Shown: piece by piece, positions 8,068 to 45,451 of the stretch | Numbering within the stretch: position 1 is the stretch's first letter | How the letters are laid out: each line of letters starts with the position of its first letter | NCBI GenBank assembly: GCA_963663895.2 | Contig: CAXXRD010000003.1 | Coordinates: forward strand, 96,001 to 160,000 | From: Dehalococcoidia bacterium | Lineage (GTDB): Bacteria; Chloroflexota; Dehalococcoidia; Bin125 | DNA length: 64,000 bases | Direction: 5' to 3' | The notes under the pieces: model-generated | The model's database searches: none | Seen by the model: the letters and a program-made list of their open reading frames with translations, nothing else | Told to the model about the DNA's origin: nothing | Position numbers and translations under genes: made by a program

Positions 8068-8343
8068 ATGGCCATAGCGGTGAAGACCCAGACGGAGCAC
8101 TGCGTCCATCATTGGCTCGTCCGCCCACCGGAGGGCACAACGAGTTGGGCGCGCTGCCGAAAGTGCGGTAAACGAAAGCGGTTCAGCAACTCATTCCAGG
8201 GGCAGGACCGCACGAACAATTCGGACATCTTTGTCGATAACCCGGTCAGCTGGCGGCCGAACTGGCGATCGGCAGCGCCGACCGAGCCACGTGTGCGCGA
8301 GGCATATGAAGCGGCGCGGCTGGCAGGTTGGAGCGCTTCCTAG
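8068..8343 (+). CDS. Small putative Zn-binding protein (CxHHW...CxxCG..KxFxN), paralog of 25634..25825
   Basis: GGGAGG RBS; HCVHHWLVRPPEGTTSWARCRKCGKRKRFSN. Confidence 0.75.
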   Translation: MAIAVKTQTEHCVHHWLVRPPEGTTSWARCRKCGKRKRFSNSFQGQDRTNNSDIFVDNPVSWRPNWRSAAPTEPRVREAYEAARLAGWSAS

Positions 8344-8478: not shown

Positions 8479-8510
8479 GAGCCGGTCCGCGCTGCGGGCC
8501 GGCTCTCTTT
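8479..8510 (+). terminator. Intrinsic terminator
   Basis: GAGCCGGTCCGC-gct-GCGGGCCGGCTC stem followed by TCTTT. Confidence 0.75.
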
Positions 8511-8625: not shown

Positions 8626-8904
8626 ATGACGACCGACAATGACGGCGCTGCTGCCGACTATGAGGTACGGACCGTCCCTTTTGACGAGTGGACGGACTTC
8701 GACACGTTGGTGCACCGGACGGCGATTACCAGCGGTGACTTCGACTACGTGCTCAGCCCACTGTGTCCGGACTGCGGGACGCCGCTGAGACTCTCGTATG
8801 AAGACACGGAGACGGGGGAGTCCGTGTTGGAGGCCCTGATCTGCGACCAGTGCGCATTGTTCTGGCGGACGGCAGCCGCAGGTCCGGGATCAGCGGCGGG
8901 CTAG
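8626..8904 (+). CDS. Hypothetical acidic Zn-ribbon protein
   Basis: CPDC...CDQC; TAGTAT -10 box 6 nt before ATG (leaderless). Confidence 0.65.
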   Translation: MTTDNDGAAADYEVRTVPFDEWTDFDTLVHRTAITSGDFDYVLSPLCPDCGTPLRLSYEDTETGESVLEALICDQCALFWRTAAAGPGSAAG

Positions 8905-8945: not shown

Positions 8946-9968
8946 ATGGTGATCGTGATGAGCACCGAGGCCGCACAAGCCGATGTAGAACGCGTGCTCG
9001 CGTCTCTGGAAGAGCACGGCTGCCAGGGCGAGCTGACCGTGGGAGTGGAGCGGACCATTGTGACCGTTGTCGGCCCCCAGGCGCCGGAGCTGCCGCAAGA
9101 GATGCGCACGCTGCCGCGGGTCGAAAGCGTGGTGCAGCTTGGCAAGTCGTACAAGCTCGCGAGCAAAGATCTTGAGCGTGCGGCATCGTCCGTCGAGATC
9201 GGAAGTGTCTGCGTCAGCGAGGGAAACTTAACGATCATGGCGGGCCCGGGTGCGGTGGAGGAAGGGTATGACCTGGAAGCGCTGGCCGTAGCGCTAAAAG
9301 CAGAGGGGGTGTCTCTGCTGTGGGGGGGAGCGATGCGGCCGGGGCAGTCGCCGTACGCCTTCCGCGGCGCCGGTGAGGAAGGGCTGCAGCGCCTGGCTGT
9401 GGCAGGAGAAGCGGCGGGACTCGCGGTCGTGAGTGAGGTACCGAGCGTCGCCGAGGTGGCGACGATCGCGCCGTACGTCGACGTGATCGAGATCGGCCCG
9501 TTCAATATGCAGAATTTCGGGCTACTCGAAGCGGCAGCCGAGACCGGTCGGGCGATCCTCCTGCACCGAGGGCTCTCGGCAACCGTAGACGAGTGGCTGC
9601 TGAGCGCGGAGCACGTGCTGCACGCGGGGAATGAACGGCTGGTGCTCTGCGAGTCCGGCATTCGTTCCTACGATGCCTCCACACCCGCGACGCTTGATCT
9701 GTCGGCGATACCGGTACTCAAGGAGCTGACGCACCTGCCAGTCTTGGTAGACCCGGCGCGCGGAGCGGGGAGAGCGGATCTGGTGGAGCGGCTGGCCCTG
9801 GCGGCCGTGGCCGCGGGAGCGGATGGTTTAGCGATCGAGGTGCATCCAGCACCGAGTCAGGCACTCGTCGATGGCGCTCAGTCGCTGGCGCTGCAGCAGT
9901 ACGGGGAACTGGTGCAGCGCCTCGATCTGCTGGCACAGGCGCTGGGACGGCCCCTCCAGCGTGTCTGA
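8946..9968 (+). CDS. Type I-beta DAHP synthase homolog with N-terminal ACT-like domain; active site degenerate
   Basis: Collinear with AroF I-beta ([32 protein letters not shown]) but catalytic motifs substituted. Confidence 0.85.
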
Positions 9969-10076: not shown

Positions 10077-10373
10077 ATGAGTATCACCGTGCGTATTCCC
10101 ACGCCGCTGCGGGGGATCACCCGCAACCAGGATGCCGTGACGGCGGAGGCAGTCGACATCGAGACGCTGATCGCGAATCTTGAAGAATCCTACGCAGGGA
10201 TCGCGGCGCGCTTGGTGGACGAGAAGGGCGAGTTGCGACGGTTCGTGAACGTGTTCGTGAACGGCGAGGACGTGCGCTTCTTGCAGGGACTACAGACAAC
10301 CCTCCAAGCTGGCGACGAAGTGAGTATCGTGCCAGCGGTAGCAGGGGGCAGCGTGGCCGGAGGCCGTTCATGA
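10077..10373 (+). CDS. MoaD/ThiS/CysO-family ubiquitin-like sulfur carrier with masked C-terminal GG
   Basis: ITVRIPTPLR, RRFVNVFVNGEDVRFLQGLQT, DEVSIVPAVAGG followed by SVAGGRS. Confidence 0.88.
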   Translation: MSITVRIPTPLRGITRNQDAVTAEAVDIETLIANLEESYAGIAARLVDEKGELRRFVNVFVNGEDVRFLQGLQTTLQAGDEVSIVPAVAGGSVAGGRS

Positions 10374-11143
10374 TCCGCACAGATGTCGACGGGCCGATCG
10401 TCACGTTGACGCTCGATCGGCCCGAGAAGATGAACTCGCTCAGCCCTGCGATGTTCAGCGAGCTGGCCCGCTTCTGGCCGGAGTTCGAAGCAGATGAGTC
10501 GCTACACGTGGCGATCGTGACCGGAACCGGACGCGCCTTCTCGTCCGGCCGGGATCTCGTCCGTACCAATGCGGCGCAAGACGAGCGGGAACGCTACGAC
10601 GGCGCCGATCCCGATGCCCCCTTCGCCATCGACCAGATCTCCAAACCCGTGATCGCGGCGATCAACGGCTGGTGCCTGGCGGCGGGGTTCGCACTGGCGT
10701 TGGCCTGCGACCTGCGGATCATGTCAGAGGGGGCCCGGATCGGAAGTGTGGCGCCGCGCCGTGGACTCCTATCTGCGGCCGGGCAGGCCCAGCGGCTCGT
10801 ACGGTACGTTCCGTTCGGGCTCGCGCTGGAATTGCTGCTGCGCGGGAACCACATTGATGCCCACGAGGCGCACCGGATCGGTCTTGTGAACGCGGTCGTG
10901 CCGCCCGATCAACTCCAGTCGACAGCGCGCGCTTGGGCGGAGGAGATCGCGTCGAACGCGCCGCTCTCGGTGCGCTACAACAAGCGTGCCGCCTACGAGG
11001 GCGGGCTATCCTCCAACGGAGCCTTCCAGCGAGGACTGGAGATCGAGGCGGAACTCTACCGCAAGATTCTGCGAACGGAAGATATGCAGGAGGGCGTGCG
11101 GGCCTTCATGGAAGGACGCGCGCCCGTCTACAAGGGTCGCTAG
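10370..11143 (+). CDS. Enoyl-CoA hydratase/isomerase (crotonase) family protein
   Basis: LDRPEKMNSL, AFSSGRDL, KPVIAAING, ACDLRI, EGVRAFMEGRAPVYKGR. Confidence 0.9.
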   Translation: MIRTDVDGPIVTLTLDRPEKMNSLSPAMFSELARFWPEFEADESLHVAIVTGTGRAFSSGRDLVRTNAAQDERERYDGADPDAPFAIDQISKPVIAAINGWCLAAGFALALACDLRIMSEGARIGSVAPRRGLLSAAGQAQRLVRYVPFGLALELLLRGNHIDAHEAHRIGLVNAVVPPDQLQSTARAWAEEIASNAPLSVRYNKRAAYEGGLSSNGAFQRGLEIEAELYRKILRTEDMQEGVRAFMEGRAPVYKGR

Positions 11144-11248
11144 CGCAAGGCCGTGCTCCCTTGCAGGCGACGGATCCCGCTCCGGCAATCAGGAAAAGCA
11201 ACCGAACCGCCCCTCTCCGCGTCCGTGCTGGAGCTACCTCGTAGCGCG

Positions 11249-12061
11249 CTAGGGATCGGGGTCCGTAGGAGATCCACCGGTATCATTCACCTCTTCTTCA
11301 TCAAGAAGAGGGATGAGCAAGATCTGGCCAACATGGATGATGTCGAACTCACCGATCTCATTGGCTTCAATGATCGCGTCAACGGAAGAGCCGAGTGCAT
11401 CGGCGATGTCGTAGATCGTGTCCCCGGCAACAACCTCGTAGAGGACCGTGTTGGGCGTTTCGCGCGGTGCATTCACAACCTCGATAGGACGGGCGAGCCC
11501 TGGTTGGGGGTTGGTCGGTGCTTGGATGTCGATAGGATCGCGGCTGGGATCCGCCGTCTCGGCAGCGGGATCGACGGTCGCCGCAGGCTCAGGAACGGCT
11601 GACTTTTCGAAGTCGATGACTCTGGCGTCGGGCGGCTGCTCGGCGACGGGAAGAGGAGCCGTGCCATCTCCTTGTCCGCCGACGGCGTCGCCGATAAAGA
11701 TGATGAGGGCGAGCACGCCAATCGCGCCGGAGACCAAGGTGACATGCACGGAGTCTGGGAGGACCCAGCGACCGCTCCCGTCGGGTCCAGGCAGGCCCAG
11801 GTAAAGCAGGCGAGAACGACGGGAGGGATTGCCACTGCGGAATGGCGCCCCTCGGGGGCTATAGCCGCTCGAGGCGGGGACCACGATGGAATTGGGGACG
11901 GTAGCGGAGTCGATCCACCAGACGATGAGCGATACGAACAGGGTCAGGAGCCCCAACACGAGGAGCCAGATGCCCGATCCCGGCCAACCAATACCGAAGA
12001 TGAGGAGAAGGAGAAAAGCGCCAGTGGCAAGAAAGCCTGCGCTTTTGACGTCGAGGCGCAC
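11249..12061 (-). CDS. Membrane protein with C-terminal LysM domain
   Basis: Three TM segments; YEVVAGDTIYDIA...IIEANEI...IHVGQILLIP. Confidence 0.85.
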   Translation of the reverse strand: MRLDVKSAGFLATGAFLLLLIFGIGWPGSGIWLLVLGLLTLFVSLIVWWIDSATVPNSIVVPASSGYSPRGAPFRSGNPSRRSRLLYLGLPGPDGSGRWVLPDSVHVTLVSGAIGVLALIIFIGDAVGGQGDGTAPLPVAEQPPDARVIDFEKSAVPEPAATVDPAAETADPSRDPIDIQAPTNPQPGLARPIEVVNAPRETPNTVLYEVVAGDTIYDIADALGSSVDAIIEANEIGEFDIIHVGQILLIPLLDEEEVNDTGGSPTDPDP

Positions 12062-12150
12062 GAGCGGCCTCCAAAAGGGCCACCGCCACTATCATATAGT
12101 CTACTCAGCTCTCGCAAGCGCACAAGCGAGATCGCCGATCGGGGAAAGCG

Positions 12151-12495
12151 ATGCCGATCTTCATCGCGCTCGGACAGGTCACGAGCCAGGGCGCACAGAA
12201 CCACGACCATCTGATCGCACGACACGAGGAAGCGGTGAAGCGCGCCACACAACTCGGCGGGCGCGTGCTCAGCTCCTATGCCACGATGGGGCGCTATGAC
12301 TTCGTGGTGACGCTGGACTGCCCGAACATGGAGACGGCGATGCGCATTCTGACCCGGGAAGCCGCCGGCGGAAACATCCGCTATGAAACGATGGCCGCGA
12401 TGCCCACGCGTGACTTCGCGCAACTCTTTCTGGACAAGGCGGCTTTGGAAGAGGAGCATCGCGTGCTGCGCTCTGGCCGGCGCAAGCAATCTTAG
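12151..12495 (+). CDS. GYD-domain protein
   Basis: LGGRVLSSYATMGRYDFVV...GNIRYETMAA. Confidence 0.82.
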   Translation: MPIFIALGQVTSQGAQNHDHLIARHEEAVKRATQLGGRVLSSYATMGRYDFVVTLDCPNMETAMRILTREAAGGNIRYETMAAMPTRDFAQLFLDKAALEEEHRVLRSGRRKQS

Positions 12496-12648: not shown

Positions 12649-13422
12649 GTGATCCGCGCAGTCTCTCGCCATCGCTATGCGATCCGCCTCGGACGGGAAG
12701 TCGCATTAGTCATGGTGGCGTATTGGGCTTACTACCTGGCACGGGCGCTCACAGCAGGCCGTGTCGAAGACGCCTTCGATAACGCCCACATCATCGTTTC
12801 AACTGAGCAAGCGCTGGGGATCTTTGTCGAATTACCTCTGCAGATCGCTCTGCTCGGCTACGACCTGATCGTGCACTTTTTCAGCCTTTGGTACTTCTGG
12901 GGTCATTTCCCATTGATCGCGCTGTTCGGCGTATGGACGTTATTCCGGCACGGGGACGATTACCGTTGGGCTCGCAACGCGATCTTCATTGCGGGAGCGC
13001 TGGCACTGATCGGGTATGCGGCATTCCCGGTCGCGCCGCCGCGGCTGCTGCCTGCAGCGGGCTTCGTCGACACGCTGGATTCGGCTTTCGTCCTGAAATA
13101 CAGCGACTCAACCCTCGTGAATCAGTTCGCGGCGGTACCCAGCATGCACTTCGGATTCGCGGTGATCATTGGAGCGGCGCTGTACCGCATCCTCGGCGGA
13201 CGGCGCGGGGCCGCAGCGGGGCTGCTCATCGCGTCGCTGATGCTGACCAGCATCATCGTGACCGGCAACCACTATTTCCTGGACGCGGTGCTGGGGCTGC
13301 CTCCGGCAATCGCGGGAATGATGCTCGCGACGCGGATCGAGCGCTACCGCTACATTCCCCGTCTTATGGCCTGCCTACAACGATCCCTCCTTGGGGAGAG
13401 AAGGCGCGCACTCCGCGTCTAA
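12649..13422 (+). CDS. PAP2_3 / AUR1 (inositol-phosphorylceramide synthase)-like membrane phosphotransferase
   Basis: FPVAPPRL, GFVDT, NQFAAVPSMHFG, TGNHYFLD. Confidence 0.82.
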   Translation: MIRAVSRHRYAIRLGREVALVMVAYWAYYLARALTAGRVEDAFDNAHIIVSTEQALGIFVELPLQIALLGYDLIVHFFSLWYFWGHFPLIALFGVWTLFRHGDDYRWARNAIFIAGALALIGYAAFPVAPPRLLPAAGFVDTLDSAFVLKYSDSTLVNQFAAVPSMHFGFAVIIGAALYRILGGRRGAAAGLLIASLMLTSIIVTGNHYFLDAVLGLPPAIAGMMLATRIERYRYIPRLMACLQRSLLGERRRALRV

Positions 13423-13571
13423 CCCCTCTGGGTAATCTTCCAAGAGCAGGTGGCTCGCTCGTCAATAGGCCGGATCGGCTTACACTACGTATGGAGCCGG
13501 CCCGCTCTCGCCCCTGTGGGCGCTCGCTGCGCTTGGCTGAGTCCAGAGGGATGGCAGGGGAGGCGCGAACC

Positions 13572-14849
13572 ATGACCACCGCCGACGACGCTCCGCCTCT
13601 CAACGAGGAGATAGCCAACCTGGCGCTCAATGAGATCGAGGGCCCGCAGAGCCGGTCCCAAAGCGCGGACGTCTTCGAGCGCTTCAAGGGTTTTCGTCTC
13701 GTCGAACAGGTCCGCGCCTTAGGCCTGTATCCCTTCTTCTTGCCGATCGAGGTGAACGAAGGACCCGAGGCCATTATCGACGGCAAGCGAGTCCTGATGC
13801 TGGGATCCAACAACTACCTGGGCCTCACGCGGCACCCCAAGGTCTTGGCGGCGGCCAAGGAGGCGCTAGAGCGGTACGGCCCATCAATGACGGGCTCGCG
13901 GCTGCTGAACGGCACCAGCGTTATCCACGAACAGCTCGAGGAGCGGATCGCTTCGTTCTTGGGATGGGAAGCGGCGCTGATCTGTACGACGGGCTATCAA
14001 GCGAACCTCTGTGTGATCTCCGCCCTCGTTGATCGCGGCGTGACGGCGGTGATCGATAAGATGGATCACGCCAGCATCTACGACGCGGCGGCGCTGGCGC
14101 TGGGCGAGTCGGTACGGTTCCGGCACAACGATGTCGCACATTTGGAGGAGGTGCTCCGGGGACTCCCGGAAACCGCAGGGCGGCTGGTCATCGTGGATGG
14201 GGTCTACTCCATGGGAGGCGACATCGCGCCGCTGCCCGAGATCGCTGCCGTATGTCAGCACTACAAGGCGCGGCTGGTGGTGGACGACGCGCACGCCATC
14301 GGAACCGTGGGGGAGCGTGGCACGGGAACACCCAGCCACTTCGGGATCACCGAGGGGGTCGATATCGTCGTCGGAACCTTTAGCAAGTCGCTCGCCTCAG
14401 TGGGCGGGTTTTGCGCCGGGCCGAAGTACGTGCTGGAGCACATCAAGCATTTCGCTCGCCCCATGATCTTCACGGCGGCCCCTCCCCCGGCTTCGGCGGC
14501 AGCGGCGCTGGCGGCGATCGAGTGCATCGAAGAGGAACCCTGGCGGGTCGCGCGTGTGAAGGAGATCGGAGCGCGGGTGCGCGTGGCTCTCCGCGAGATG
14601 GGCTTCAATATCGGTGCAACGGAGACACCGATCGTTCCGATCATCATCGGCAGCGAGCTCAAAACTGCGCTGTTCTGGCGAGATCTACTGGACAACGGGA
14701 TCTACACGAACGCGGTGGTCGTGCCGGCCGTACCGCGTGGCCAATCCTCGCTGCGGACATCGTACGTAGCGACGCATAGCGACGAACAGATCGAGAGCGC
14801 GCTGGAGCGGTTCGGCGAGCTGGCACGCAAACACGGAATCATCGATTAA
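13572..14849 (+). CDS. Alpha-oxoamine synthase, serine palmitoyltransferase-like
   Basis: GLYPFF...GKRVLMLGSNNYLGLT, DHASI, VDDAH, GTFSKSLAS (PLP Lys); GGAGG before ATG 13572 (alternative starts 13491, 13551). Confidence 0.82.
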   Translation: MTTADDAPPLNEEIANLALNEIEGPQSRSQSADVFERFKGFRLVEQVRALGLYPFFLPIEVNEGPEAIIDGKRVLMLGSNNYLGLTRHPKVLAAAKEALERYGPSMTGSRLLNGTSVIHEQLEERIASFLGWEAALICTTGYQANLCVISALVDRGVTAVIDKMDHASIYDAAALALGESVRFRHNDVAHLEEVLRGLPETAGRLVIVDGVYSMGGDIAPLPEIAAVCQHYKARLVVDDAHAIGTVGERGTGTPSHFGITEGVDIVVGTFSKSLASVGGFCAGPKYVLEHIKHFARPMIFTAAPPPASAAAALAAIECIEEEPWRVARVKEIGARVRVALREMGFNIGATETPIVPIIIGSELKTALFWRDLLDNGIYTNAVVVPAVPRGQSSLRTSYVATHSDEQIESALERFGELARKHGIID

Positions 14850-14867
14850 CGGCGAGCAGGTGGCTGA

Positions 14868-15839
14868 GTGCGAGTGCTACTGACCGGGGCCAGTGGATTC
14901 ATCGGCGCACATACGGCGCGCGCGCTCAGCGAGGCGGGACATACCGTTCGAGCGCTCGTGCGGCCGACGAGCGATCGCTCCGGCCTGGCGGACCTGCCAA
15001 TCGAATACGCGGTGGGGGACTTGATCGGGGCTGGCCTGGCGACTGCCTGTGGGGGAATGGACGCGGTTGTGCACCTGGCCGGCCTGACGCGAGCACGCAG
15101 TGAAGCGCACTTCATGCGCGTGAATGGAGAGGGCACGGCGCTGCTCGCGGAGGCCGCTGCGAACGCGGGTGTGCGCCGATTCGTGTACGTTTCCTCGATC
15201 GCGGCGCACGGGCCTGCTGCCCACGACCAGCCGCGCGACCCGTCGGAGCCAGCGCGGCCGGTCTCGCCCTACGGACGCTCGAAAGCGGCCGGAGAGACTG
15301 GAGCACTGGCACGCGCCGACCGGATGGCGGTGCAGGTGCTGCGGCCGCCGCTCGTCTACGGCCCGCGCGACAATGCGCTTCTCCCGTTCTTCCGCATGGC
15401 ACGGTGGCGGATAGTGCCGGTGATGGGCCGAGGCGAGAACCGTCTGTCGCTCATCCATGCACGGGACCTCGCGGAGAGCATCCGGGCATTGCTGGAGAGC
15501 GAACCGGCCCCGGCGGCCTGTTTTCACGCGGCAGGACCCGGGAAGCCCCAGAGTTGGCGCGAGTTGGTAGAAGCGCTGGGAGGGGCGTTGGAGCGCTCGG
15601 TGAACGTGCTGCCCATACCCGCGGCCGGGTTCGTGGGGGCGGCGCTGGTAGCGGAGTCCGGTGCGCGCCTGAGCAAGGGACCGCCGATACTGGATCGTGG
15701 CAAGGTCACCGAGATGCGGCAGCGCTGGATCTGCGATCACGCAGCCCTCACGGCGGCCACGGGCTGGGAGCCGCGCTGTGCACTCGAGGTGGGGCTACGG
15801 GAGACTGCCGCTTGGTACCGAGCGCACGGGTGGCTCTGA
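14868..15839 (+). CDS. NAD(P)-dependent epimerase/dehydratase (extended SDR), possible ketosphingoid/oxidised-ceramide reductase
   Basis: TGASGFIG, VVHLAGLT, YVSS, YGRSK, RPPLVYGPRD. Confidence 0.82.
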   Translation: MRVLLTGASGFIGAHTARALSEAGHTVRALVRPTSDRSGLADLPIEYAVGDLIGAGLATACGGMDAVVHLAGLTRARSEAHFMRVNGEGTALLAEAAANAGVRRFVYVSSIAAHGPAAHDQPRDPSEPARPVSPYGRSKAAGETGALARADRMAVQVLRPPLVYGPRDNALLPFFRMARWRIVPVMGRGENRLSLIHARDLAESIRALLESEPAPAACFHAAGPGKPQSWRELVEALGGALERSVNVLPIPAAGFVGAALVAESGARLSKGPPILDRGKVTEMRQRWICDHAALTAATGWEPRCALEVGLRETAAWYRAHGWL

Positions 15840-16433
15840 ATGCCGTCTGGGAACGAGCGGCCATTGCTGTCATTCGACCTCGACGGCGTGCTGGCGGCGC
15901 CACCGTTGGGCCGCAACTTCACGATCCAGCGGCGGCTGGATCTACCCTCGCACGCCCTGGCCACCAGAACGGCGCCCGAGCCGGACCCACGCCCTTCACT
16001 CCACGACCGGCTACTGATCCAAACCTACTTTCGGATACGGTACCGGGGCCGGGAGCCGATGCCCGGGGCGCAGGCAGCGGTCGCCGCCGCTGCGACCCGC
16101 TACCGGGTGATCGTGCTAACCGCGCGCAACTGGAGGGGCCGCAAAGCAACGGAAGCATGGCTGAGGCGACACGGGATCCTGGAGCATGTGGAGCGGGTCG
16201 TGCTCAATAACACCGCCCTTGCGTCAGCAAGGTTCAAGGAGCGCGTGGTCCAGCAGCTCGGAGTGACCCGCCACGTGGAGGACGACGCGGCGACGGCGGC
16301 CCTGGTGGCGCGAGCGGGAATAGCGGTTGATCTGATCGACTGGCCAGGGAATCGCGGGCTGGCCTTCCCGGAAAGAGTAACGCGTCGCGCGAACCTCGCG
16401 GCGCTGACGCGGCCGCTCACAGATGACTGCTAG
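15840..16433 (+). CDS. HAD-superfamily phosphatase-like protein
   Basis: FDLDGVL (motif I), LTAR (II), FK (III), HVEDD (IV); abuts the upstream stop. Confidence 0.72.
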   Translation: MPSGNERPLLSFDLDGVLAAPPLGRNFTIQRRLDLPSHALATRTAPEPDPRPSLHDRLLIQTYFRIRYRGREPMPGAQAAVAAAATRYRVIVLTARNWRGRKATEAWLRRHGILEHVERVVLNNTALASARFKERVVQQLGVTRHVEDDAATAALVARAGIAVDLIDWPGNRGLAFPERVTRRANLAALTRPLTDDC

Positions 16434-16853: not shown

Positions 16854-17984
16854 ATGGCCGCTGATGGGGCACGCGAGAGACTCAACCAAGCGCGCGTCGT
16901 CCCCTTGCGGCTCGTCAGTCAACCGCGTCCGTCATCTCGATCGCTCGCGGCACTCCTCAGCGAGCTGACCGCGGCCGGCGAGTTGGCCGAGGAGCTGCCC
17001 AAGAGCCGGTTGCGCTGCGTGGCCTGCGGACACCGCTGCCTGATCCCGCCCGGTGCGGTTGGCGTGTGCAAGGTGCGCTTCAACCAAGACGGCATGCTGC
17101 GAGTCCCTTTCGGCTACGTCGGCGCGTTACAGGTCGACCCGGTAGAGAAGAAGCCTTTCTTTCATTTTCTGCCTGGATCGACGGCGCTTTCGTTTGGCAT
17201 GCTGGGCTGCGACTTCCACTGTGGGTACTGTCAGAACTGGGTGACCTCGCAGGCGCTACGCGACCCGCAGGCACAGAGCTCCGCGATGCCGGTAAGTGCC
17301 GGACAGCTTGCGCGGTTGGCGCGAGAGCGGGGCAGCCAGCTCGTCGTGAGCACCTATAACGAGCCACTCATCACCTCGGAATGGGCAGTAGCGATCTTTC
17401 GAGAGGCGCGGGCCTTGGGACTGCGAACGGCCTATGTCTCCAATGGCAATGCGACCCCGGAAGTCCTCGACTACATCCGACCGTACGTCGATGCATACAA
17501 GGTTGATCTGAAGGCCATGCGTGACCGGTCGTATCGCAAGCTGGGCGGACTCTTGGAGCATGTGCGCTGGACAATCCGGGCCGTGCACGAGCGTGGATTC
17601 TGGCTGGAGGTTGTGACCCTCATCGTGCCGGGCTTTAACGACAGCGACGAAGAGCTGCGGGACGCGGCGGAATTCCTCGCGGGCGTGTCGCCGGAGATTC
17701 CCTGGCACGTGACTGCGTTCCATCCGGACTACAAAATGCTGGGGCCTGAACGAACGCCGGTAGACACCTTGCGGCGCGCGCAGCGGATCGGCCGGGACGC
17801 TGGCCTGCAGTACGTCTACTCCGGGAACCTACCGGGGCAAGTGGGCGAGACGGAGCACACCCGCTGTCCGCGGTGTGCCTCGACAGTCATTCAACGATAC
17901 GGGTTCCAAGTGATCGAACGGCGACTCATGGCGGACGGCGCCTGTCCAGACTGCGGCGCTGTGCTACCGGGGATCTGGTCCTAG
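16854..17984 (+). CDS. amrS: AmmeMemoRadiSam system radical SAM enzyme
   Basis: CVACGHRC, DPVEKKPFFHF, GCDFHCGYCQNW, TYNEP, WHVTAFHPDY, YVYSGN. Confidence 0.92.
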   Translation: MAADGARERLNQARVVPLRLVSQPRPSSRSLAALLSELTAAGELAEELPKSRLRCVACGHRCLIPPGAVGVCKVRFNQDGMLRVPFGYVGALQVDPVEKKPFFHFLPGSTALSFGMLGCDFHCGYCQNWVTSQALRDPQAQSSAMPVSAGQLARLARERGSQLVVSTYNEPLITSEWAVAIFREARALGLRTAYVSNGNATPEVLDYIRPYVDAYKVDLKAMRDRSYRKLGGLLEHVRWTIRAVHERGFWLEVVTLIVPGFNDSDEELRDAAEFLAGVSPEIPWHVTAFHPDYKMLGPERTPVDTLRRAQRIGRDAGLQYVYSGNLPGQVGETEHTRCPRCASTVIQRYGFQVIERRLMADGACPDCGAVLPGIWS

Positions 17985-33800: not shown

Positions 33801-34121
33801 ATGGGTAAGTATTTGCTGCAGGCGAGCTACACGCAGGAAGGTCTCGCTGGTTTGAGCAAGGAGGGGGGAACGAGCCGAAGGGCGGCTCTGACGGAGACCA
33901 TTGGGGGCGTGGGTGGCAGCTTGGAGTCGTTCTACTACGCCTTCGGCAAGGACGATCTCTTCATCATCGCCGATCTGCCCGACGACGCAGCGGCGACGGC
34001 CGTATCCCTCGCCCTCGGTGCCGCCGGCGCCCTCACGGTCAGTGTCACGGTGCTGATCACCGCGGAGACCGTGGACGAGGCCATCGCCAAGAGCGTGCCC
34101 TACCGTCCTCCCGGATCCTGA
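33801..34121 (+). CDS. GYD-domain protein
   Basis: YLLQASYT.EG..G, GGSLESFYYAFGKDD, YRPPG; GAGGAGG RBS. Confidence 0.88.
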   Translation: MGKYLLQASYTQEGLAGLSKEGGTSRRAALTETIGGVGGSLESFYYAFGKDDLFIIADLPDDAAATAVSLALGAAGALTVSVTVLITAETVDEAIAKSVPYRPPGS

Positions 34122-36927: not shown

Positions 36928-37044
36928 ATGTGGGTGACTTGACCGACCGCGGACCGCACACCAAGCAGAACGCTTTTCTCCGACAGCTGGCGTGAGAAAC
37001 GCCCCGCGCCCGGGCCGCTACATTGGAGGGGAGGAGGGTACGGC

Positions 37045-37350
37045 ATGGGGCTGATCGAGCGGCTGCGGCGGGCGACGCGCGGGCCGACGATCGGCCCCAC
37101 ACCCGCGGAGGTCGCGCGGGTGCGGCGAGCGCTCCGCATGGAGGCGCGGCGGCGGGGACAGCCCACGGGACTCTCCATGACGCAGCTGTTGGAGCACAGT
37201 ACGGAGCCGCTGCGGCAGGTCGACATCTACGCGGTGATCGCGCACCTCGCAGCCGAGGGGGAGGTGACCAACCTGCAGCAGCCCTCCGACGGCAACATGC
37301 GGTTCGACCTCACCGAGAAACTCACCAAGAAGAGCGATCACGCTCCCTAA
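37045..37350 (+). CDS. Hypothetical protein
   Basis: GGAGG-rich RBS, typical codon usage, fills the gap between genes. Confidence 0.6.
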   Translation: MGLIERLRRATRGPTIGPTPAEVARVRRALRMEARRRGQPTGLSMTQLLEHSTEPLRQVDIYAVIAHLAAEGEVTNLQQPSDGNMRFDLTEKLTKKSDHAP

Positions 37351-37451
37351 CGGCCCGCCCGTTGTTAGTTGATAGTGCGATCATAGGAAGGCGGCCCGAA
37401 CAGGCCCGCACGTCAAGGACGTCCGGCCAGTCAGGTATCTCTCTGTTCACG

Positions 37452-38216
37452 CTACGTGCGGGGAAGGCGCGCGGCGAAGCGCAGGCGAACGTAGTCGGCG
37501 GTCCAGCGGCCCGTCTGATCGCAGAGGCTCGGCCGAAGCCGCTCGATCACTTCCGCTAGAGCGCCGTCGCGGTCGCGGGGGTGGAGCTGCGAGAAGAAGC
37601 TCTCGCCGAAGGTGTCGAGCCAGCCCGCCATGTCCGTGGGGAGCGGAGTGGGGCGCGGGAATAGTGCGATGTTCTCGACGAGAAAGCCGCCAGTCTGGAG
37701 CTTGGCCGCGTAGGTCTCGGGCTTGGGAAAGTACCACGGCATCGGACCGCCGTCCTCGACGCCGCGCCGCGCCAAGACGGCCCGCAAGGCTTCAACGATC
37801 GTGGCGACGTTGTCGTGACCGCCAAACTCGGCCACGAAGCGGCCGCCGGGTTTCAGCGCGCGACGGACGCCCGCGATGACCGCGTCGGGGTCGGGCATCC
37901 AGTGCAGCGCGGCGTTGGAGAAGACGGCGTCGAACTCGGCCGAGAACGCGAGCCGTTGACCGTCCATCAGCCGCGCGTCCAAGCCCCGGCGCCGGGCCGC
38001 CTCCACCATGGCCGCCGCGCCGTCCACGCCGACGACCGTGCAGCCGACCTCCACGAGCTTCTCGGTCAGCGCGCCTTCGCCGCAGCCCAGGTCGAGGATG
38101 CGTTCGCCGGGTTGGGGGTCTAGCAGGGCAAGCGCGGCCAAGCCGAAGCCGGACACGAAACCGGCATGCTCGGTGTAGCGATCGGCTTGCCAAGATTGAT
38201 GTGGGTGAGCGGGCGT
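37452..38216 (-). CDS. Class I SAM-dependent methyltransferase; apparent ACG start
   Basis: WQADRY..HAGFV, ILDLGCGEG, FDAVFSNAALHW, LKPGGRFVAEFGG, WTADYVRLRF. Confidence 0.88.
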   Translation of the reverse strand, partial: TPAHPHQSWQADRYTEHAGFVSGFGLAALALLDPQPGERILDLGCGEGALTEKLVEVGCTVVGVDGAAAMVEAARRRGLDARLMDGQRLAFSAEFDAVFSNAALHWMPDPDAVIAGVRRALKPGGRFVAEFGGHDNVATIVEALRAVLARRGVEDGGPMPWYFPKPETYAAKLQTGGFLVENIALFPRPTPLPTDMAGWLDTFGESFFSQLHPRDRDGALAEVIERLRPSLCDQTGRWTADYVRLRFAARLPRT

Positions 38217-38749
38217 AAGCCACCTCCGGTCCTGCGGGCTCGGCCACGAGCCCGGATCAACGGCCTCGCTTATACGATCGCCCTATAGATGTTATGTATG
38301 ACTCCAGAGTGATATCGAGACGCTCCGGGCAACGTGGCGAGGCACGACGAGCGGCGCTTTTGCGGCTGCCACGGGTCGGAGATGGTCGCAGCCCGCGACG
38401 CGGAGCATGCGGCGCGCCAGGTACGAGGACACGAGGAAGAGCCAGGCACCGCCGAGCAGCCGCGTGCTTCACGCGCTCCATCTGCTTCGCCGTCCATTCT
38501 CCACGCCCGGCCCGCAGCTTCGCGCTCGCCGCCGGCGAGCGGGCCGCCATACGGCAAGGCTGGCGTCGTTGCAGTACCACCGAAGATCGCACTATAAATC
38601 GAACCCCTGCCTTACCGGCCGTCGGTGCCATCCACCGGAGCGCGCCGGGCATGGCCGGCAGCTATGGATACGCGCGCGGGCGCTGCAACGCTCGGGAGAG
38701 CTTGTTCGGTTGAACTTCGCACTACAGTCTTCCCTTGCGGCGCCCTACC

Positions 38750-39688
38750 CTACCCTACCGGCCTGGCTCTGGCATCGGCGACCGGTTGATTGAGACGAAC
38801 GATATCGAGCGGCTCTTCCACCGTGAGCGCGAAACGGCGGAGCAAACCGGCCAGCGCATTGCCGGGCCCGGTGACAGCGACGGTCCGCACGCCCTGATCG
38901 TAGGCGGTCTGCAGGGCGTCGACCCAGCGGACGGAGCGGCTGTACTGGCCGCGCAGCTCGGCGCGGAGGGCGGCCGGGGTTTCGATCAGCTGCCCGCAGG
39001 CGTTGCCGATCATCGGCCTGAACGACTCGCGCAGGGAGAGCGCTTCGATTAGCGGCTCCGCGGCGGCGTCGGATTCGCGAAAGTAGTCGGTGTGGAAGGC
39101 GCCGGCGACGCGCAGCGCCACGGCCTTCACGCCGCGCGCCACGGCCAGCCGCTGCGCCTCCCCGACGGCGCCCACGCCGCCGCCCACGACGAACTGATCG
39201 GCGGCGTTGCAGTTGGCGAGTGTGCATCCGGCGGCGGCGGCGATCTCCTCGGCGACGCGATGGCCCACGCCCGCCAGGGCGAGCAACGTGTTGGGCGCGG
39301 CCTCGCAGTCGCGGTCCATGAGACGGCCGCGCTCGTAGGCGAAGCGGACGCCGTCTGCAAAGGAAAGGGCGCCGCAGAGGACGGCGGCCGAATTCTGGCC
39401 GGACGAGTGCCCCAGGTAGAGATGAAAGGCGAGCAGGGCGCGCCCCTCTCGCTCGGCCCGCTCACGGTCGGCCTGGGCCCAGGCGACGAGCAGCGGCTGC
39501 ACCACGGAGGGCTTGGCGAGCTCCGCGGCCGGGGCGCTGAGGCCAAGCTCCCAAAGATCGACGCCGATGGCGGCGGAGGCGCGATCGAACACGGCCCGGT
39601 CATCGCGGTCAAGCGAGGCGACCGCGCCGGGCCTCTGCGATCCTTGCCCCGGACACAGCAGCGCGGCGCGGGGAGGAAGCGAGGACAT
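38750..39688 (-). CDS. fabD: ACP S-malonyltransferase-like acyltransferase
   Basis: PGQGSQ, QP, GHSSG, ERGRLM, GAFH, VRW, GPG; no other fab genes nearby. Confidence 0.78.
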   Translation of the reverse strand: MSSLPPRAALLCPGQGSQRPGAVASLDRDDRAVFDRASAAIGVDLWELGLSAPAAELAKPSVVQPLLVAWAQADRERAEREGRALLAFHLYLGHSSGQNSAAVLCGALSFADGVRFAYERGRLMDRDCEAAPNTLLALAGVGHRVAEEIAAAAGCTLANCNAADQFVVGGGVGAVGEAQRLAVARGVKAVALRVAGAFHTDYFRESDAAAEPLIEALSLRESFRPMIGNACGQLIETPAALRAELRGQYSRSVRWVDALQTAYDQGVRTVAVTGPGNALAGLLRRFALTVEEPLDIVRLNQPVADARARPVG

Positions 39689-39836
39689 CGGCGCTCCTGC
39701 TCTTGATGCGGCTGCGATCAGCGGACCAGCGGACGGGCGGCGACCACTGCAGGACCCGGCAACGGCCGCTCCCGCGATCGCTGGCGGGAATCCATCGCCC
39801 TACACTGAACCGTACAGGGATTTTGAGGGAGGGTGA

Positions 39837-41169
39837 ATGTCGAATCCGCGCAACCGCTGGCGGCTGTTGCTCCTGGCTCCGATCACGCTGCTCGCTATCG
39901 CCGGCTTCGCGCTGGGGATCGGCGTCAAGGGGCTGCTGGACGGCGACGCCTCGGCGACGGGCTCGGTGCGCGCTTTGCGAGGCGGCGGCTCCGGCCCGGC
40001 GGTGATCGACTTCCAAGCGAACGAAGAGCGCGAATCGCGCTTCGGGTTGCTGGACGAGGTCTACGACATCCTCAGCCGTGAGTTCGTGGAGCCGGACCGG
40101 GTCGAGCTGGGAGGGCTGCGGACGGCGGCGATCAACGGCGCCGTCGGCGCGCTCAACGACCCGCACTCGGTCTACATCGACCGCGAGACCTTCCACCTCA
40201 GCAGCGAGAGCATCAGCGGGCAGTTCGAGGGGATCGGCGCGACCGTCGATCAGCAAAGCGAGGGGATCTTCATCACGGGGACCTTCCGCGGCTCGCCGGC
40301 CGAGGCGGCCGGCATCCGCAGCGGCGACGTGATCCTGGCGGTGGACGGAGAATCGACCGCGGGCTGGTCGGTGCAGTTCGCGGTGGCGCGCATCCGCGGC
40401 CACGCCGGCACGGACGTGGTGCTGACGGTGCGGCACCGCACGGGCCAAGTGGAGGATATTACGGTCACGCGCGGCGTGATCGTGATCCCGAGCGTGCAAG
40501 CGATTCAGGTGCAGGACGCCGCCGGCCTCGCCGTCGAGGACCTCGCCTATATCGCCATCTCGCAGTTCACGGAGAACACCCGCGAGGAGTTGGTGGCGGT
40601 GCTGGAGGGCGCGCGGGCGGCCCAGGTGGAGGGGCTCATCATCGACTTGCGCGGCAACCCGGGCGGGCTGCTCACGGCGACGGTGGAGGTGACGGGCGAG
40701 TTCCTGGACGGCGGCGTGGTGCTGACGGAGGTCAACCGCCAACGGCGATGAGCAGGCCTTCAACGACCAGCCCGGGGGCGCCGCCCTCGATATCCCCCTC
40801 GTAGTTCTCGTGAACGGCGGCTCGGCCTCCGGCTCGGAGGTGTTCGCGGCGGCCCTGCGGGACTACGGGCGAGCCGTTGTCCTGGGCGAGCAGACGCTGG
40901 GCAAGGGGACGGTCAGCATCCCCCGTCACCTCTCCGACGGCAGCGTGCTCTACGTGAGCACGGCGCGCTGGCTCACGCCCGACGGCGAACTGATCGAGGG
41001 GGTCGGCTTGATCCCGGACTTCATCATCGAGCCTTCAGACATCGACTTCGAGCAGCGGCGCGACGTGCAGCTCTTCGCGGCGATCAACTACCTGCGCGGC
41101 CTGCCGATCGAGACGTCACTGACCGCGCCCCAAGGGGTGGCCCAGGATCCGGAGCGCACGGATCCCTAA
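39837..41169 (+). CDS. S41 carboxyl-terminal processing protease; frameshift near 40740
   Basis: LNDPHS.Y, FEGIG, PDZ, IDLRGNPGG, then VNGGSASGSE and GKGTV in the shifted frame. Confidence 0.9.
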
Positions 41170-41310
41170 ACCGGCGTGCCCCCGGCGGCCCGTGACGCGC
41201 GCCGGCGGCGCCAACGCCTGCGAGAGGCGGGGCGGACGCGCCCGCTGTAACCGGCAGGAGACTTGAGCGCATCCTGTCCAGGGCGCTCTGCCGGTCGTAG
41301 ACTGACGCCG

Positions 41311-41841
41311 ATGGCGAGGAGCAAGTCGAAGCGGAAGGGGCGGGCGCGGGACGGCGCCGGGGGCGGGGAGGCGGACGCCGCCGCCAAAGCGGCGGCGAAC
41401 TTCCGAACGATCGCGCGCAACAAGCGCGCCACCTTCAACTACGCCATCCTGGAGCGCTTCGAGACGGGGCTGGCGCTGACCGGGACCGAGATCAAGGCGA
41501 TCCGTGAAGGCAAGGCGAGCATCGCGGAGGCCTACGTGCGTCCACGCGCCCGCGAGCTCTGGTTGGTGGGGGCGACGATCGCCCGCTACGAGGCGGCCAG
41601 CCACGGCAACCACGACCCCACCCGGGACCGCAAGCTGCTGCTGCATCGCCGGGAGATCCGGGCGCTCACGGAGGGGGCGGAGCAGAAGGGACTGACGATC
41701 GTTCCGATCCACCTTTACCTCAAGCGTGGGCTGGCAAAGCTGGAGATCGGGCTGGGGCGGGGCAAGCGGCAGTACGACAAGCGGCAGGCGATCGCCAAAC
41801 GGGAGGCGGAGCGACGGATGCGGCAGAGCGTGCGCCAGTAG
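41311..41841 (+). CDS. smpB: SsrA-binding protein
   Basis: NKRATFNY, GLALTGTEIKAIR, RKLLLHRREI, GKRQYDKR; adjacent to tmRNA. Confidence 0.96.
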   Translation: MARSKSKRKGRARDGAGGGEADAAAKAAANFRTIARNKRATFNYAILERFETGLALTGTEIKAIREGKASIAEAYVRPRARELWLVGATIARYEAASHGNHDPTRDRKLLLHRREIRALTEGAEQKGLTIVPIHLYLKRGLAKLEIGLGRGKRQYDKRQAIAKREAERRMRQSVRQ

Positions 41842-41882
41842 CCGCGGCTGGCGAGAGGCGGCCCTATACTGGGACGGTGAAA

Positions 41883-42240
41883 GGGGACGAAAGGACTCGA
41901 CAGCGATCGGTTGATCGGTTTTGCGTGCCGAGGTGCCGTGCCCTCGTAAAACTGCGGCAGTTAAAATAACTGGCGAGAAAGAACTCGCTCTCGCTGCCTA
42001 ACTAGGCGGTGAGCGTTCCCCACCGCGCTCGGCCGGACGGCCGGTGGCGGGGCGTCAATCAGTCCGGCTGCTCGGTCTCTGATGCCGGGAAGAGACCGCT
42101 AAGACAAACTCCGGCTGGTCCAGGGGCCAGCCCGTCGGGCGACGGGCCTCGGGGCGAGACACCAAGCCCGACTACGCGCGTAGCAGATACCGGCGGCTCA
42201 TCGTCTGGACGGGGAGTTCGATTCTCCCCCGTCTCCACCA
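41883..42240 (+). ncRNA. ssrA: tmRNA; tag (A)GEKELALAA at 41972..42001
   Basis: 5' GGGGACG pairs with 3' CGTCTCC-ACCA (G3.U); T-arm GTTCGATT; ATAACT resume context; TATACT -10 at 41865. Confidence 0.95.
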
Positions 42241-42324
42241 CTTCCCTTCCGGATCGCCCACAGCGCCACTGCCGCACATCCCCCAGACCGCACCAAGCGG
42301 GGAGCCAGCAACACGGGCAGGTTT

Positions 42325-42711: not shown

Positions 42712-42754
42712 GGACAGCCTCGCAGTTGTGCTCCGCCCCGCCGTGGACGGCGGA

Positions 42755-44185: not shown

Positions 44186-44221
44186 GCTGTGCGCTCCGAT
44201 CCGTCTTCGGCCCGAGCGCCG

Positions 44222-45295: not shown

Positions 45296-45451
45296 AGATC
45301 ACACCCTCAGGGCGCCTCTCGCCGCCTGCAAGCCGTCGCAATCAGCGTCGAAGGTATCACCAGACGGCGGCCGGTAGTGGCTCGAAGCGCCGGGAGTTGG
45401 CATCGTGGGCGAGCAGCGCCTCGAGGCAGCTTCCGATAGGAGGAACAAAAA

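Follow-up and report, generated by a model that had tools for sequence, protein, structure and literature searches.

The gene considered here raises the question of what a protein with the fold of a DAHP synthase (DAHPS) may do once most of the residues that bind metal, PEP and E4P have been replaced. It lies in the window, i.e. the entire 64-kb stretch of DNA that was analysed. Its product had been regarded in a preliminary description as an intact pseudoenzyme that could act as a non-catalytic regulatory subunit or amino-acid sensor, or as an enzyme with a new substrate. The gene and its parts are as follows:

8946..9968, + strand: coding sequence of the putative DAHP-synthase-like pseudoenzyme (P0001), 340 aa, based on ORF and translation, Pfam, 1rzm match and AF2 model
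8946..9137, + strand: N-terminal ferredoxin-like (ACT-like) domain, residues 1-64 (PF18152)
9231..9950, + strand: (beta/alpha)8 barrel, residues 96-335, which holds the former active site

Fold and former active site

The reading frame extends from the ATG at 8946 to the stop at 9968 on the + strand and, according to its translation, encodes 340 aa with 0 internal stops. A longer alternative ORF starts from GTG 8850, but the relatives all begin at the MVIVM of 8946. Pfam assigns the product to DAHP_synth_1 (PF00793, E 1e-53) with a ferredoxin-like domain at residues 1-64 (PF18152, E 3e-14). The alignment with the DAHPS of T. maritima (1rzm) is gap-free over residues 1-335 (E 4e-79, ~40% identity), and residue numbering is therefore common to both proteins. 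The gene thus proved to be intact, full-length and without stops, as had been claimed. An AF2 model (pLDDT 90, pTM 0.80) superposes on T. maritima DAHPS 1vr6 with a TM of 0.89 and has the order beta-alpha-beta-beta-alpha-beta in its N-domain. Residues 131-140 and 241-250, formerly substrate loops, have the lowest confidence (~70).

Profile searches place the protein in the same family. Both NCBIfam DAHPS models are passed, i.e. NF006421 with 355 bits against a cut-off of 335 and TIGR01361 with 282.5 against 267.75. Membership in the KDO8P synthase or NeuB families is below the respective cut-offs (TIGR01362, 90.9 versus 314; PseI, 21 versus 340), the NeuB Pfam match being partial (32 bits), and the NCBIfam exception model for the BagF/FevY DAHPS of secondary metabolism is likewise not reached (260.9 versus 700). 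Judged by alignment and model, the window protein is a full-length type I-beta DAHPS homologue with a complete predicted DAHPS fold, which shares its two-domain architecture and its length with the type I-beta enzyme of T. maritima (1rzm, 1vr6, 3pg9).

In contrast to that enzyme, the window protein has hardly any of the expected ligands. In T. maritima numbering, C102, H272, E298 and D309 are metal ligands, R126, K131, Q182, R186, K207 and R237 are PEP ligands, and R133, T134 and D309 are E4P ligands (PMC6362186). The sequence of the window protein at these twelve positions (102/126/131/133/134/182/186/207/237/272/298/309) is G W R G Q E F H S R E D. Measured by this ligand set, 2/12 are kept (E298 and D309) and 10/12 are replaced, namely by G102, W126, R131, G133, Q134, E182, F186, H207, S237 and R272 for C, R, K, R, T, Q, R, K, R and H, respectively. 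Within the same set, the metal site retains two of its four ligands (Gly, Arg, Glu, Asp) and the PEP site none of its six (Trp, Arg, Glu, Phe, His, Ser), while at the E4P positions Gly133 and Gln134 are replacements and Asp309 is kept. Of 149 diverse representatives chosen at 50% identity, 132 retain at least 11 of these twelve ligands.

The motifs from which the pseudoenzyme had first been recognised are all in place, i.e. AGPGAVE at 99-105, the counterpart of RGGAxKPRTS at 126-135, IGPFN at 183-187, LLHRG at 205-209, CESG at 235-238, TPATLD at 246-251 and DPAR at 269-272, and the metal Cys and metal His are gone as stated (G102 and R272). The loss was also said to centre on the PEP, E4P and metal ligands. 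This agrees with a comparison over the 91 positions with an invariance of 95% or more among 79 canonical relatives; of these, the window protein differs at 8/10 ligand positions versus 12/81 others (Fisher one-sided p = 5e-5). Going by these residues, the protein cannot be an ordinary DAHP synthase, and DAHP formation would not be expected from it.

A conserved clade with shifted constraint

Among the 120 best matches listed, 41 (51-96% identity) have no Cys102 and carry replacements in the same ligand motifs; the other 79 are canonical. Cys102 is absent in 40/40 clade sequences compared, and the members keep one to three of the twelve ligand positions. Genome contigs were scanned with two patterns from the clade alignment, GVERTI[IV]TV and CE[SA]GIR.., which do not match canonical genes. 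Nine of 80 genome loci fell into the clade, all of them in Chloroflexota/Dehalococcoidia MAGs. The clade has a support of 100 on a stem of length 0.52-0.60, and in two trees it groups with canonical Chloroflexi-type DAHPS (SH-aLRT 81 and 92). From the compared sequences, then, the substitutions are shared by one monophyletic Chloroflexota clade and are not private to the window genome.

The canonical DAHPS of Chloroflexi/Dehalococcoidia (e.g. P0050 and P0116), which are the nearest relatives in both trees, have the same architecture at 43-47% identity. A search with canonical P0050 provided a Chloroflexi-type reference set of 117 sequences among the 120 matches listed. At least 11/12 ligands are intact in all 117, of which 105 read CRKSTQRKRHED and the rest differ only at 133/134.

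The reading frame is intact in 10/10 genomes that differ by up to ~45% in protein sequence. Between the window gene and its closest relative (L001), dN/dS is 0.062, and 16 neighbouring genes span 0.031-0.255; other unsaturated pairs give 0.10-0.21, and all 44 computable pairs stay at or below 0.50. With a conserved clade and a dN/dS of 0.062 within the range of the neighbouring genes, the substitutions are therefore neither private nor accompanied by neutral evolution, and the earlier view that they do not reflect random decay stands.

Where selection acts can be read from the 91 canonical-invariant positions: 68 are unchanged in the clade, seven have been switched to another residue and 16 are variable, among them R126, R186, K207, R247, H272 and E298. 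Some pocket sites have been switched and are fairly fixed (G102 90%, R131 88%, Q134 78%, E182 95%, S237 82%, A271 80%), and E236, H300, D309, Q312 and S313 are kept. Since several pocket positions have been switched to fairly fixed residues, the pocket may conceivably bind a small ligand or even have become catalytic in a new way. Pairwise identity in the clade is 0.715 for the N-domain versus 0.633 for the barrel, whereas the canonical set has 0.661 versus 0.832. Divergence of the N-domain relative to that of the barrel accordingly amounts to 0.78 in the clade, as against 2.02 for the canonical Chloroflexi-type sequences. Constraint has moved from the catalytic barrel to the N-terminal regulatory domain in this clade, the reverse of what is found in canonical enzymes.

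The regulatory domain itself has not remained as it was. Eight sites in the N-domain and linker are switched and fixed, reading 'CETITRLS' in 10/10 genomes; the clade-fixed residues of the N-domain are C26, E29, T31, I38, T40 and R54. Canonical Chloroflexi-type sequences have His29, Ser31, Gly40 and Glu54 at 97-100%, in place of which the clade has Glu29, Thr31, Thr40 and Arg54. Positions 29 and 31 are those that we take to contact Tyr in the T. maritima enzyme. Hence, the statement that the ACT-like domain is preserved holds in that the domain is present and forms the most conserved part of the clade, but not for the eight switched positions.

Neighbouring genes and possible functions

The gene is accompanied by the following features:

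8068..8343, + strand: small1, a conserved neighbour of 91 aa with a CxHH...CxKCG and an FxGRDRxNNSDIF motif
8479..8505, + strand: terminator-like hairpin in the small1-small2 interval, 12 pairs followed by a T-rich tail
8626..8904, + strand: small2 (92 aa), which carries the zinc-ribbon-like motif CPDCG...CxxC and lies 41 nt upstream of the pseudoenzyme gene
10077..10373, + strand: ThiS/MoaD-family ubiquitin-like protein (SAMP1-like), the downstream neighbour (PF02597, E 8.5e-17)

Both small genes recur in 9/9 clade loci, small2 directly upstream of the pseudoenzyme gene, with dN/dS values of 0.255 (small1) and 0.169 (small2). For the two proteins, nothing usable was found in Pfam (down to E 5), NCBIfam, PADLOC or ESM Atlas, and small2 has no Pfam, NCBIfam or PADLOC family. 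The small2 family comprises 85 database clusters, of which all five with an organism name are from Chloroflexota, and it is wider than the clade; its AF2 model is poor (pLDDT 67.8). The SAMP1-like protein scores 60.1 bits with NCBIfam SAMP1 (cut-off 60) and 54 with moaD_arch (cut-off 49.5). It ends in ...AVAGG plus a variable tail, with 0-7 residues after the GG in 9/9 clade loci. A rhodanese gene also lies near the pseudoenzyme gene. In none of the 71 non-clade loci were small1, small2 or the SAMP-like protein found. These conserved neighbours say little about a functional association, since synteny among the nine related genomes extends over >15 kb.

The putative terminator faintly suggests a transcription unit that begins with small2 and includes the pseudoenzyme gene, three terminator-like sites having been found in the region against 2.2 expected from shuffles. 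A promoter scan gave no sites, and no riboswitch or leader was found near it, Rfam matching only a tmRNA over the whole window. No aromatic-pathway gene is located near the pseudoenzyme gene in 10/10 genomes, and tblastn with three canonical DAHPS as queries matched only the pseudoenzyme gene in the 64-kb window, which thus yielded no canonical DAHPS. A reading as a defence system was rejected, as PADLOC matched none of the six local proteins.

Taken together, the best-supported reading, to which we assign a probability of about 0.58, is that of a pseudoenzyme which is kept by selection and whose function would have shifted from catalysis to the binding of a ligand or partner. It would be a paralogue of the type I-beta DAHPS of Chloroflexota regulated by a ferredoxin-like domain, and would no longer bind metal, PEP or E4P. 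Selection would maintain a folded two-domain protein, in which the remodelled ACT-like domain may sense a ligand, probably no longer Tyr or Phe, or latch onto a partner, while the barrel may act as an oligomerisation scaffold. In this way, the pseudoenzyme could regulate or scaffold another protein. Candidate partners would be a canonical DAHPS encoded elsewhere or the co-directional neighbours, i.e. the small Zn-ribbon protein and the SAMP/MoaD-like protein. The earlier proposal of a non-catalytic regulatory subunit or sensor survives in its non-catalytic part, which is consistent with the 2/12 ligands kept. Sensing of Tyr or Phe is weakened by the eight switched sites of the regulatory domain and linker, as well as by the lack of a nearby aromatic-pathway gene in the ten genomes.

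Alternatively, the barrel may have been neo-functionalised to act on a new substrate in a reaction that requires neither PEP nor metal and is possibly tied to the SAMP/MoaD-like sulfur carrier. Such an enzyme would be in line with the strong purifying selection, with the fairly fixed new pocket residues (G102, R131, Q134, E182, S237, A271) beside the retained E236, H300, D309, Q312 and S313, and with the ThiS/MoaD-family gene that is always downstream and the rhodanese gene nearby. However, six former ligand positions (126, 133, 186, 247, 272 and 298) vary freely within the clade, and the earlier suggestion of an enzyme with a new substrate is disfavoured for this reason. Moreover, the barrel overall evolves faster than the regulatory domain, the pocket displays no new conserved constellation of Lys, Cys or His, model confidence is lowest in the former substrate loops, and synteny is uninformative among these related genomes. 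A new enzymatic activity thus appears rather unlikely.

A still more doubtful possibility is a regulatory subunit that senses Tyr/Phe and assembles into mixed tetramers with an active DAHPS encoded elsewhere in the genome. The full-length fold with its N-terminal regulatory domain has been retained, the position of the clade as sister to canonical Chloroflexi-type DAHPS is what a duplication would produce, and in 15 loci of Actinomycetota a degenerate gene directly follows a canonical one. Yet, the window contains no canonical paralogue, and aromatic-pathway genes are absent nearby in all ten genomes. In addition, the regulatory signature itself has changed (29 His to Glu, 31 Ser to Thr and six more switched), whereas a degenerate Acidobacteriota-type group keeps the canonical one.

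It is very improbable that the protein still works as a DAHP synthase by means of an unusual active site that needs no metal. The NCBIfam cut-offs for DAHPS are passed (NF006421, TIGR01361), and the sister family KDO8PS includes non-metallo forms, as seen from PDB entries on an engineered path from the metallo to the non-metallo form. However, the replacements comprise not only the metal Cys and His but also all six PEP and both E4P-specific ligands, and Cys102 has become Gly, not Asn as in the non-metallo KDO8PS variant C11N of the PDB list. Furthermore, the ligand positions are near-invariant in 132/149 diverse representatives. The least credible option, a recently inactivated gene turning into a pseudogene, would explain the lost catalytic residues, but is contradicted by the intact frame in 10/10 genomes at up to ~45% protein divergence, dN/dS values of 0.06-0.21 in unsaturated pairs, the retention of 68/91 family-invariant positions and the confident AF2 model.

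Degenerate relatives in other phyla and wider meaning

The window clade is not the only DAHPS-like lineage with a degenerate active site. In the genome scan, which is biased by its motifs, 65/94 ORFs in 78 loci keep at most 8/12 ligands, and in a list unbiased by motif 11/149 representatives are degenerate. Such proteins are fused to a chorismate mutase (CM) in nine loci of Acidimicrobiia and to a prephenate dehydratase (PDT) in three loci of Spirochaetota. Their genes adjoin a chorismate mutase gene in 12 loci of an Acidobacteriota-type group (group B) and directly follow a canonical DAHPS gene in 15 loci of Actinomycetota. Because the degenerate forms are fused to or adjoin CM, PDT or canonical DAHPS, our analysis suggests that dead DAHPS domains may be retained as partners of other proteins.

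These lineages resemble the window clade in that they, too, have lost the metal Cys, Lys131/Lys207 and Arg237, and group B even has C102G, K131R, R237S and H272R in common with it. Unlike the window clade, they keep the canonical signature of the regulatory domain and an aromatic-pathway context, and they are found elsewhere in both trees. An independent origin of the window clade and group B is not claimed here: the trees separate the two, but an AU test, for which the grouping was chosen after the tree had been seen, does not reject a single clade (p = 0.376).

Characterised systems offer partial parallels. The histidyl-tRNA-synthetase paralogue HisZ is inactive and serves as a regulatory subunit of ATP phosphoribosyltransferase. 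It illustrates by analogy how an enzyme paralogue without catalysis can be kept as a ligand-sensing subunit in amino-acid biosynthesis, although its fold and pathway are unrelated to those of the window protein. In the fusions and complexes of DAHPS with chorismate mutase from Geobacillus (5j6f) and Listeria (3nvt/3tfc), the DAHPS barrel is a regulatory or scaffolding partner of another domain. The DAHPS-chorismate mutase bienzyme of Prevotella nigrescens is another case of such partnering (PMC8408635). The Acidimicrobiia fusions and the Acidobacteriota-type neighbours mentioned above fit this pattern. In the characterised cases, however, the DAHPS part is catalytically active, whereas the window protein has neither a fused nor an adjoining CM or PDT.

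Tentatively, and with considerable doubt, dead DAHPS paralogues might be regarded as a recurrent regulatory class of bacterial proteins that has gone unrecognised and spans five or more phyla (Chloroflexota, Acidobacteriota, Actinomycetota, Spirochaetota and Rhodothermota). The Chloroflexota clade would then be the most derived and stand outside aromatic metabolism, its ACT-like domain re-tuned to a new ligand or partner, and it could control an unrelated process together with the Zn-ribbon and/or the SAMP/MoaD-like protein.

A full-text literature search did not find a description of a DAHPS pseudoenzyme. Automatic annotation wrongly calls this apparent pseudoenzyme an active enzyme, JGI naming the clade members P0013, P0025, P0026 and P0030 '3-deoxy-7-phosphoheptulonate synthase'. 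Since the NCBIfam cut-offs are passed as well, metabolic reconstructions may credit uncultured Chloroflexota with the entry step of the shikimate pathway, a step that, as far as its residues indicate, this one pseudoenzyme gene cannot provide. Degenerate DAHPS-like proteins are common and often joined to chorismate mutase or prephenate dehydratase. Among them, the window clade would be a clean natural example of how an enzyme of central metabolism turns into a pseudoenzyme, in which the shift of constraint from barrel to allosteric domain is measurable. Once found, its ligand and partner would constitute a new regulatory module on a well-studied allosteric scaffold.

A DAHPS fold without most of its ligand residues

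The gene at 8946-9968 (+) is, on translation, an intact open reading frame of 340 codons, whose DAHP-synthase (DAHPS)-like product is very probably a pseudoenzyme that does not make DAHP. A longer reading frame is possible from a GTG at 8850; a start at the MVIVM encoded from 8946 is shared by every relative, the T. maritima enzyme included, and there is a GAGG 9 nt upstream of it. Pfam assigns residues 1-64 to a DAHPS ferredoxin-like domain (E 3e-14) and residues 94-321 to a DAHP synthetase I barrel (E 1e-53). Among solved structures, T. maritima DAHPS (1rzm/1vr6) comes closest (E 4e-79); the two sequences align gap-free over residues 1-335 of each, and residue numbers are therefore common to both proteins. 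AlphaFold2, with 40 clade sequences as input, gives a confident model (mean pLDDT 90.0, pTM 0.80) in which the N-domain is predicted as beta-alpha-beta-beta-alpha-beta and leads into a barrel of eight strands. The model superposes on 1vr6 with a TM of 0.89, and its confidence is lowest (about 70) in the former substrate loops (131-140 and 241-250). Automatic annotation calls the protein a DAHPS (NF006421, 355 against a cut-off of 335; TIGR01361, 282.5 against 267.75), and four clade members were named '3-deoxy-7-phosphoheptulonate synthase' by JGI.

PMC6362186, whose Aro1A numbering plus 66 gives T. maritima numbering, assigns C102, H272, E298 and D309 to the metal, R126, K131, Q182, R186, K207 and R237 to PEP, and R133, T134 and D309 to E4P. 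The pseudoenzyme carries G, W, R, G, Q and E at positions 102, 126, 131, 133, 134 and 182 and F, H, S, R, E and D at positions 186, 207, 237, 272, 298 and 309, which leaves only E298 and D309 (2/12); all seven motifs listed in the preliminary description were found at their expected places. Of 91 positions with at least 95% invariance across 79 canonical relatives, the pseudoenzyme deviates at 20, namely at 8/10 ligand and 12/81 other invariant positions (Fisher one-sided p = 5e-5), and this concentration at ligand sites is not chance. The clusters at 50% identity that are nearest to the query supplied 149 representatives, of which 132 retain at least 11 of the 12 ligands, six retain 9-10, and 11 retain at most eight (one of these only through gaps); elsewhere, then, these residues tolerate little change.

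A Chloroflexota clade under purifying selection

The 120 matches listed from a search of 5.8 billion proteins split sharply into 41 clade-type sequences (P0002-P0041 and the fragment P0088; 51-96% identity), which are devoid of Cys102 and share the motifs xGGxxRPxQSPY, IGPxN-like, LL[HR]R and CE[SATG]GIR, and 79 canonical ones with at most 50% identity to the pseudoenzyme. A genome scan returned 80 loci, nine of which (L001-L008 and L012; 55-96% identity) belong to the clade, all titled Chloroflexota, Chloroflexi or Dehalococcoidia MAGs. The ligand substitutions are thus conserved clade-wide and not private to this genome, an alternative that the preliminary description had raised. Both maximum-likelihood trees support the clade at 100, on a long stem of 0.52 and 0.60 changes per site, and group it with canonical Chloroflexi/Dehalococcoidia-type DAHPS (SH-aLRT 81 in the 82-row tree, 92 in the 68-row tree), a pattern that gene duplication within the phylum and a subsequent burst of change would be expected to leave.

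Neutral evolution, also considered at the outset, does not fit the pairwise Nei-Gojobori estimates: against the closest relative, L001, dN/dS is 0.062 (dS 0.31), within the range of 0.031-0.255 for 16 neighbouring genes of the same pair. Further unsaturated pairs give 0.099 (L007-L008) and 0.18-0.21 (L004, L007, L008, L012), and the ratio is at most 0.50 in all pairs with a computable dS below 2.5 (44/45), with values of deeper pairs inflated by saturation.

Within the clade (40 sequences), 68 of the 91 canonical-invariant positions are retained, seven have switched to a new prevalent residue (P68S, C102G, K131R, Q182E, G198A, R237S, S271A) and 16 are variable, including R126, R186, K207, R247, H272 and E298. 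While a few former ligand positions have been re-fixed, the drift at most of them reads as the signature of an abandoned active site. Constraint has shifted between the domains: in 117 canonical Chloroflexi-type sequences of similar phylogenetic depth with intact ligands, pairwise identity averages 0.661 for the N-domain and 0.832 for the barrel (divergence ratio 2.02), whereas the clade shows 0.715 and 0.633 (ratio 0.78), the canonical sets being the matches nearest to the query or to P0050, a canonical Chloroflexi/Dehalococcoidia DAHPS, and not a balanced sample. Eight N-domain and linker sites are switched and fixed (L/F26C, H29E, S31T, V38I, G40T, E54R, I65L, P68S) and spell 'CETITRLS' in 10/10 genomes. 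One lead is that His29 and Ser31 of the T. maritima enzyme reportedly contact the inhibitor tyrosine. Selection thus seems to act on the regulatory domain and the overall fold rather than on barrel chemistry.

Neighbouring genes and possible functions

The genes around the pseudoenzyme gene are arranged as follows.

8068-8343, co-directional row: small1, a small ORF with a CxHH...CxKCG motif
8479-8505: terminator-like hairpin between small1 and small2
8626-8904, co-directional row: small2, a small ORF with a CPDCG...CxxC motif
8946-9968, +: pseudoenzyme gene, between small2 and the SAMP-like gene
10077-10373, co-directional row: ThiS/MoaD-family SAMP-like protein, reaching the NCBIfam SAMP1 and archaeal MoaD cut-offs
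10370-11143, co-directional row: enoyl-CoA hydratase

The order small1, small2, pseudoenzyme gene, SAMP-like gene is kept in 9/9 related loci and the enoyl-CoA hydratase gene occurs in 3/9; gaps, taken by hand from coordinates, are 17-162 nt before the pseudoenzyme gene and about 70-146 nt after it. Adjacency alone carries little weight, since synteny among the related genomes extends over more than 15 kb (FTHFS, rhodanese, DUF3090, LysM, GYD, PAP2 and a BioF/serine-palmitoyltransferase-like enzyme). The small2 family comprises 85 clusters (all five with an organism name being Chloroflexota), of which 11 agree exactly with clade members in the length of their longest contig; others lie on long contigs to which no clade member corresponds, and the family therefore extends beyond the clade.

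The SAMP-like protein and its homologues (L001-L008, L012) share an invariant AVAGG end followed by 0-7 variable residues, because of which it would need C-terminal processing before use in most genomes; no E1-like or JAMM gene was found among those ORFs of the window that were scanned. The window also codes for two GYD-domain proteins (12151-12495 and 33801-34121), the first conserved in 8/9 related loci. A row at 12649-16433, found in most of the nine related loci, encodes a PAP2 phosphatase-like membrane protein, a BioF/serine-palmitoyltransferase-like PLP enzyme (its top NCBIfam model, serine palmitoyltransferase, scores 456 bits, under the cut-off of 640), an HpnA-like epimerase/reductase and a HAD-like ORF, and looks like a lipid (sphingoid-base-like) module. 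It is followed at 16854-17984 by an AmmeMemoRadiSam-system radical SAM enzyme (TIGR04337, 282 bits, cut-off 220).

Farther away, the SmpB gene (41263-41841) precedes a tmRNA gene (41883-42240; RF00023, 145 bits), the sole Rfam match in the window. A C-terminal-processing peptidase (PDZ and Peptidase_S41) occupies two ORFs (39837-40751 and 40810-41169) that divide the S41 domain at profile positions 69/94; the gene may carry a frameshift or be truly disrupted, or the sequence may contain an error. Isocitrate lyase also appears as two ORFs (53719-54555 and 54676-55077, - strand) adjoining malate synthase (55074-56774); they match profile positions 352-525 and 4-116, the part between these being absent, and this glyoxylate-shunt gene may be broken or interrupted. 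Base composition differs between about 1-900 plus 37000-47500 and 1000-36000: G+C rises from about 0.63-0.66 to 0.69-0.72 past about 38 kb, and ORFs at 37-47 kb, like the first two of the window, have a third-position G+C of about 0.9 as against about 0.75. Acquisition of DNA, high expression of the genes or a join made in assembly could each account for this.

As for function, we infer, with a probability of roughly 0.6, that the pseudoenzyme acts through binding. The ACT-like domain, re-tuned, would hold on to a partner or serve as a ligand sensor, and the barrel would be the oligomeric scaffold, as it is known to be in the characterised type I-beta DAHPS in general. Another protein would thereby be regulated or stabilised. 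The main alternative, albeit an unlikely one, is that the pocket has been remodelled for a new enzymatic activity, to which the re-fixed residues G102, R131, Q134, E182, S237 and A271 and the sulfur-carrier neighbour could point. The version of the preliminary description, in which the protein senses Tyr/Phe as part of a mixed tetramer that includes an active AroF, is less probable still, as the 64-kb window holds no canonical paralogue, no other DAHPS homologue and no aromatic-pathway gene, and the regulatory-domain signature is changed in the clade.

Other degenerate DAHPS-like lineages

The genome scan is rich in degenerate DAHPS-like genes because one of its patterns, CE[SA]GIR, lacks Arg237: in this biased sample of 94 ORFs from 78/80 loci, 65 keep at most 8/12 ligands, five keep 9-10, 20 keep at least 11, and four are too gappy to score, a less biased frequency being the 11/149 representatives. 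Four arrangements recur.

Acidimicrobiia/Spongiisociaceae MAGs, 9 loci (L024, L031-L033, L035, L042, L046, L048, L049; e.g. L035:9968-11029): degenerate barrel with fused C-terminal chorismate mutase (CM_2), 2-3/12 ligands, motifs AGPR, LLERG, CEAGIR and VAPSAA
Acidobacteriota, Bryobacteraceae, Limnocylindrales and one MAG titled Heliobacteriaceae, 12 loci (L011, L015, L016, L021, L025, L026, L034, L036, L040, L041, L047, L050): small chorismate mutase gene directly upstream
Spirochaetota, 3 loci (L009:10001-11938, L013:8817-10748, L023:10001-11950): degenerate ferredoxin-like-domain DAHPS (1-2/12 ligands) fused to prephenate dehydratase (PDT) and ACT, ~645 aa
Actinomycetota, 15 loci (L055-L057, L060-L062, L064, L065, L069-L073, L079, L080; e.g. 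L073:9902-10756 and 10756-12396): intact short DAHPS gene followed immediately by a ~540-aa degenerate copy, often with a few-base overlap

The Acidimicrobiia fusion is possibly a chorismate mutase in which a dead DAHPS domain has been retained for scaffolding or regulation. Just upstream of the tandem in L073, a gene for a tryptophan-halogenase-like FAD enzyme hints at a biosynthetic cluster. The Acidobacteriota-type group sits apart from the window's clade in both trees, and an AU test did not reject a single clade for the two (p = 0.376). This group keeps the canonical regulatory signature 'FHSIGEVP' where the clade reads 'CETITRLS'; unlike the other degenerate lineages, the clade has lost the aromatic context, and its regulatory domain has been rebuilt.

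Canonical DAHPS genes likewise lie beside chorismate mutase or PDT genes (L043, L052), hence this context is inherited, and the retention of dead copies within it is the point that matters. No description of catalytically dead DAHPS paralogues was found in full-text literature searches, whose coverage lacks most subscription journals; here a very well-studied allosteric enzyme has very probably given rise to a pseudoenzyme.
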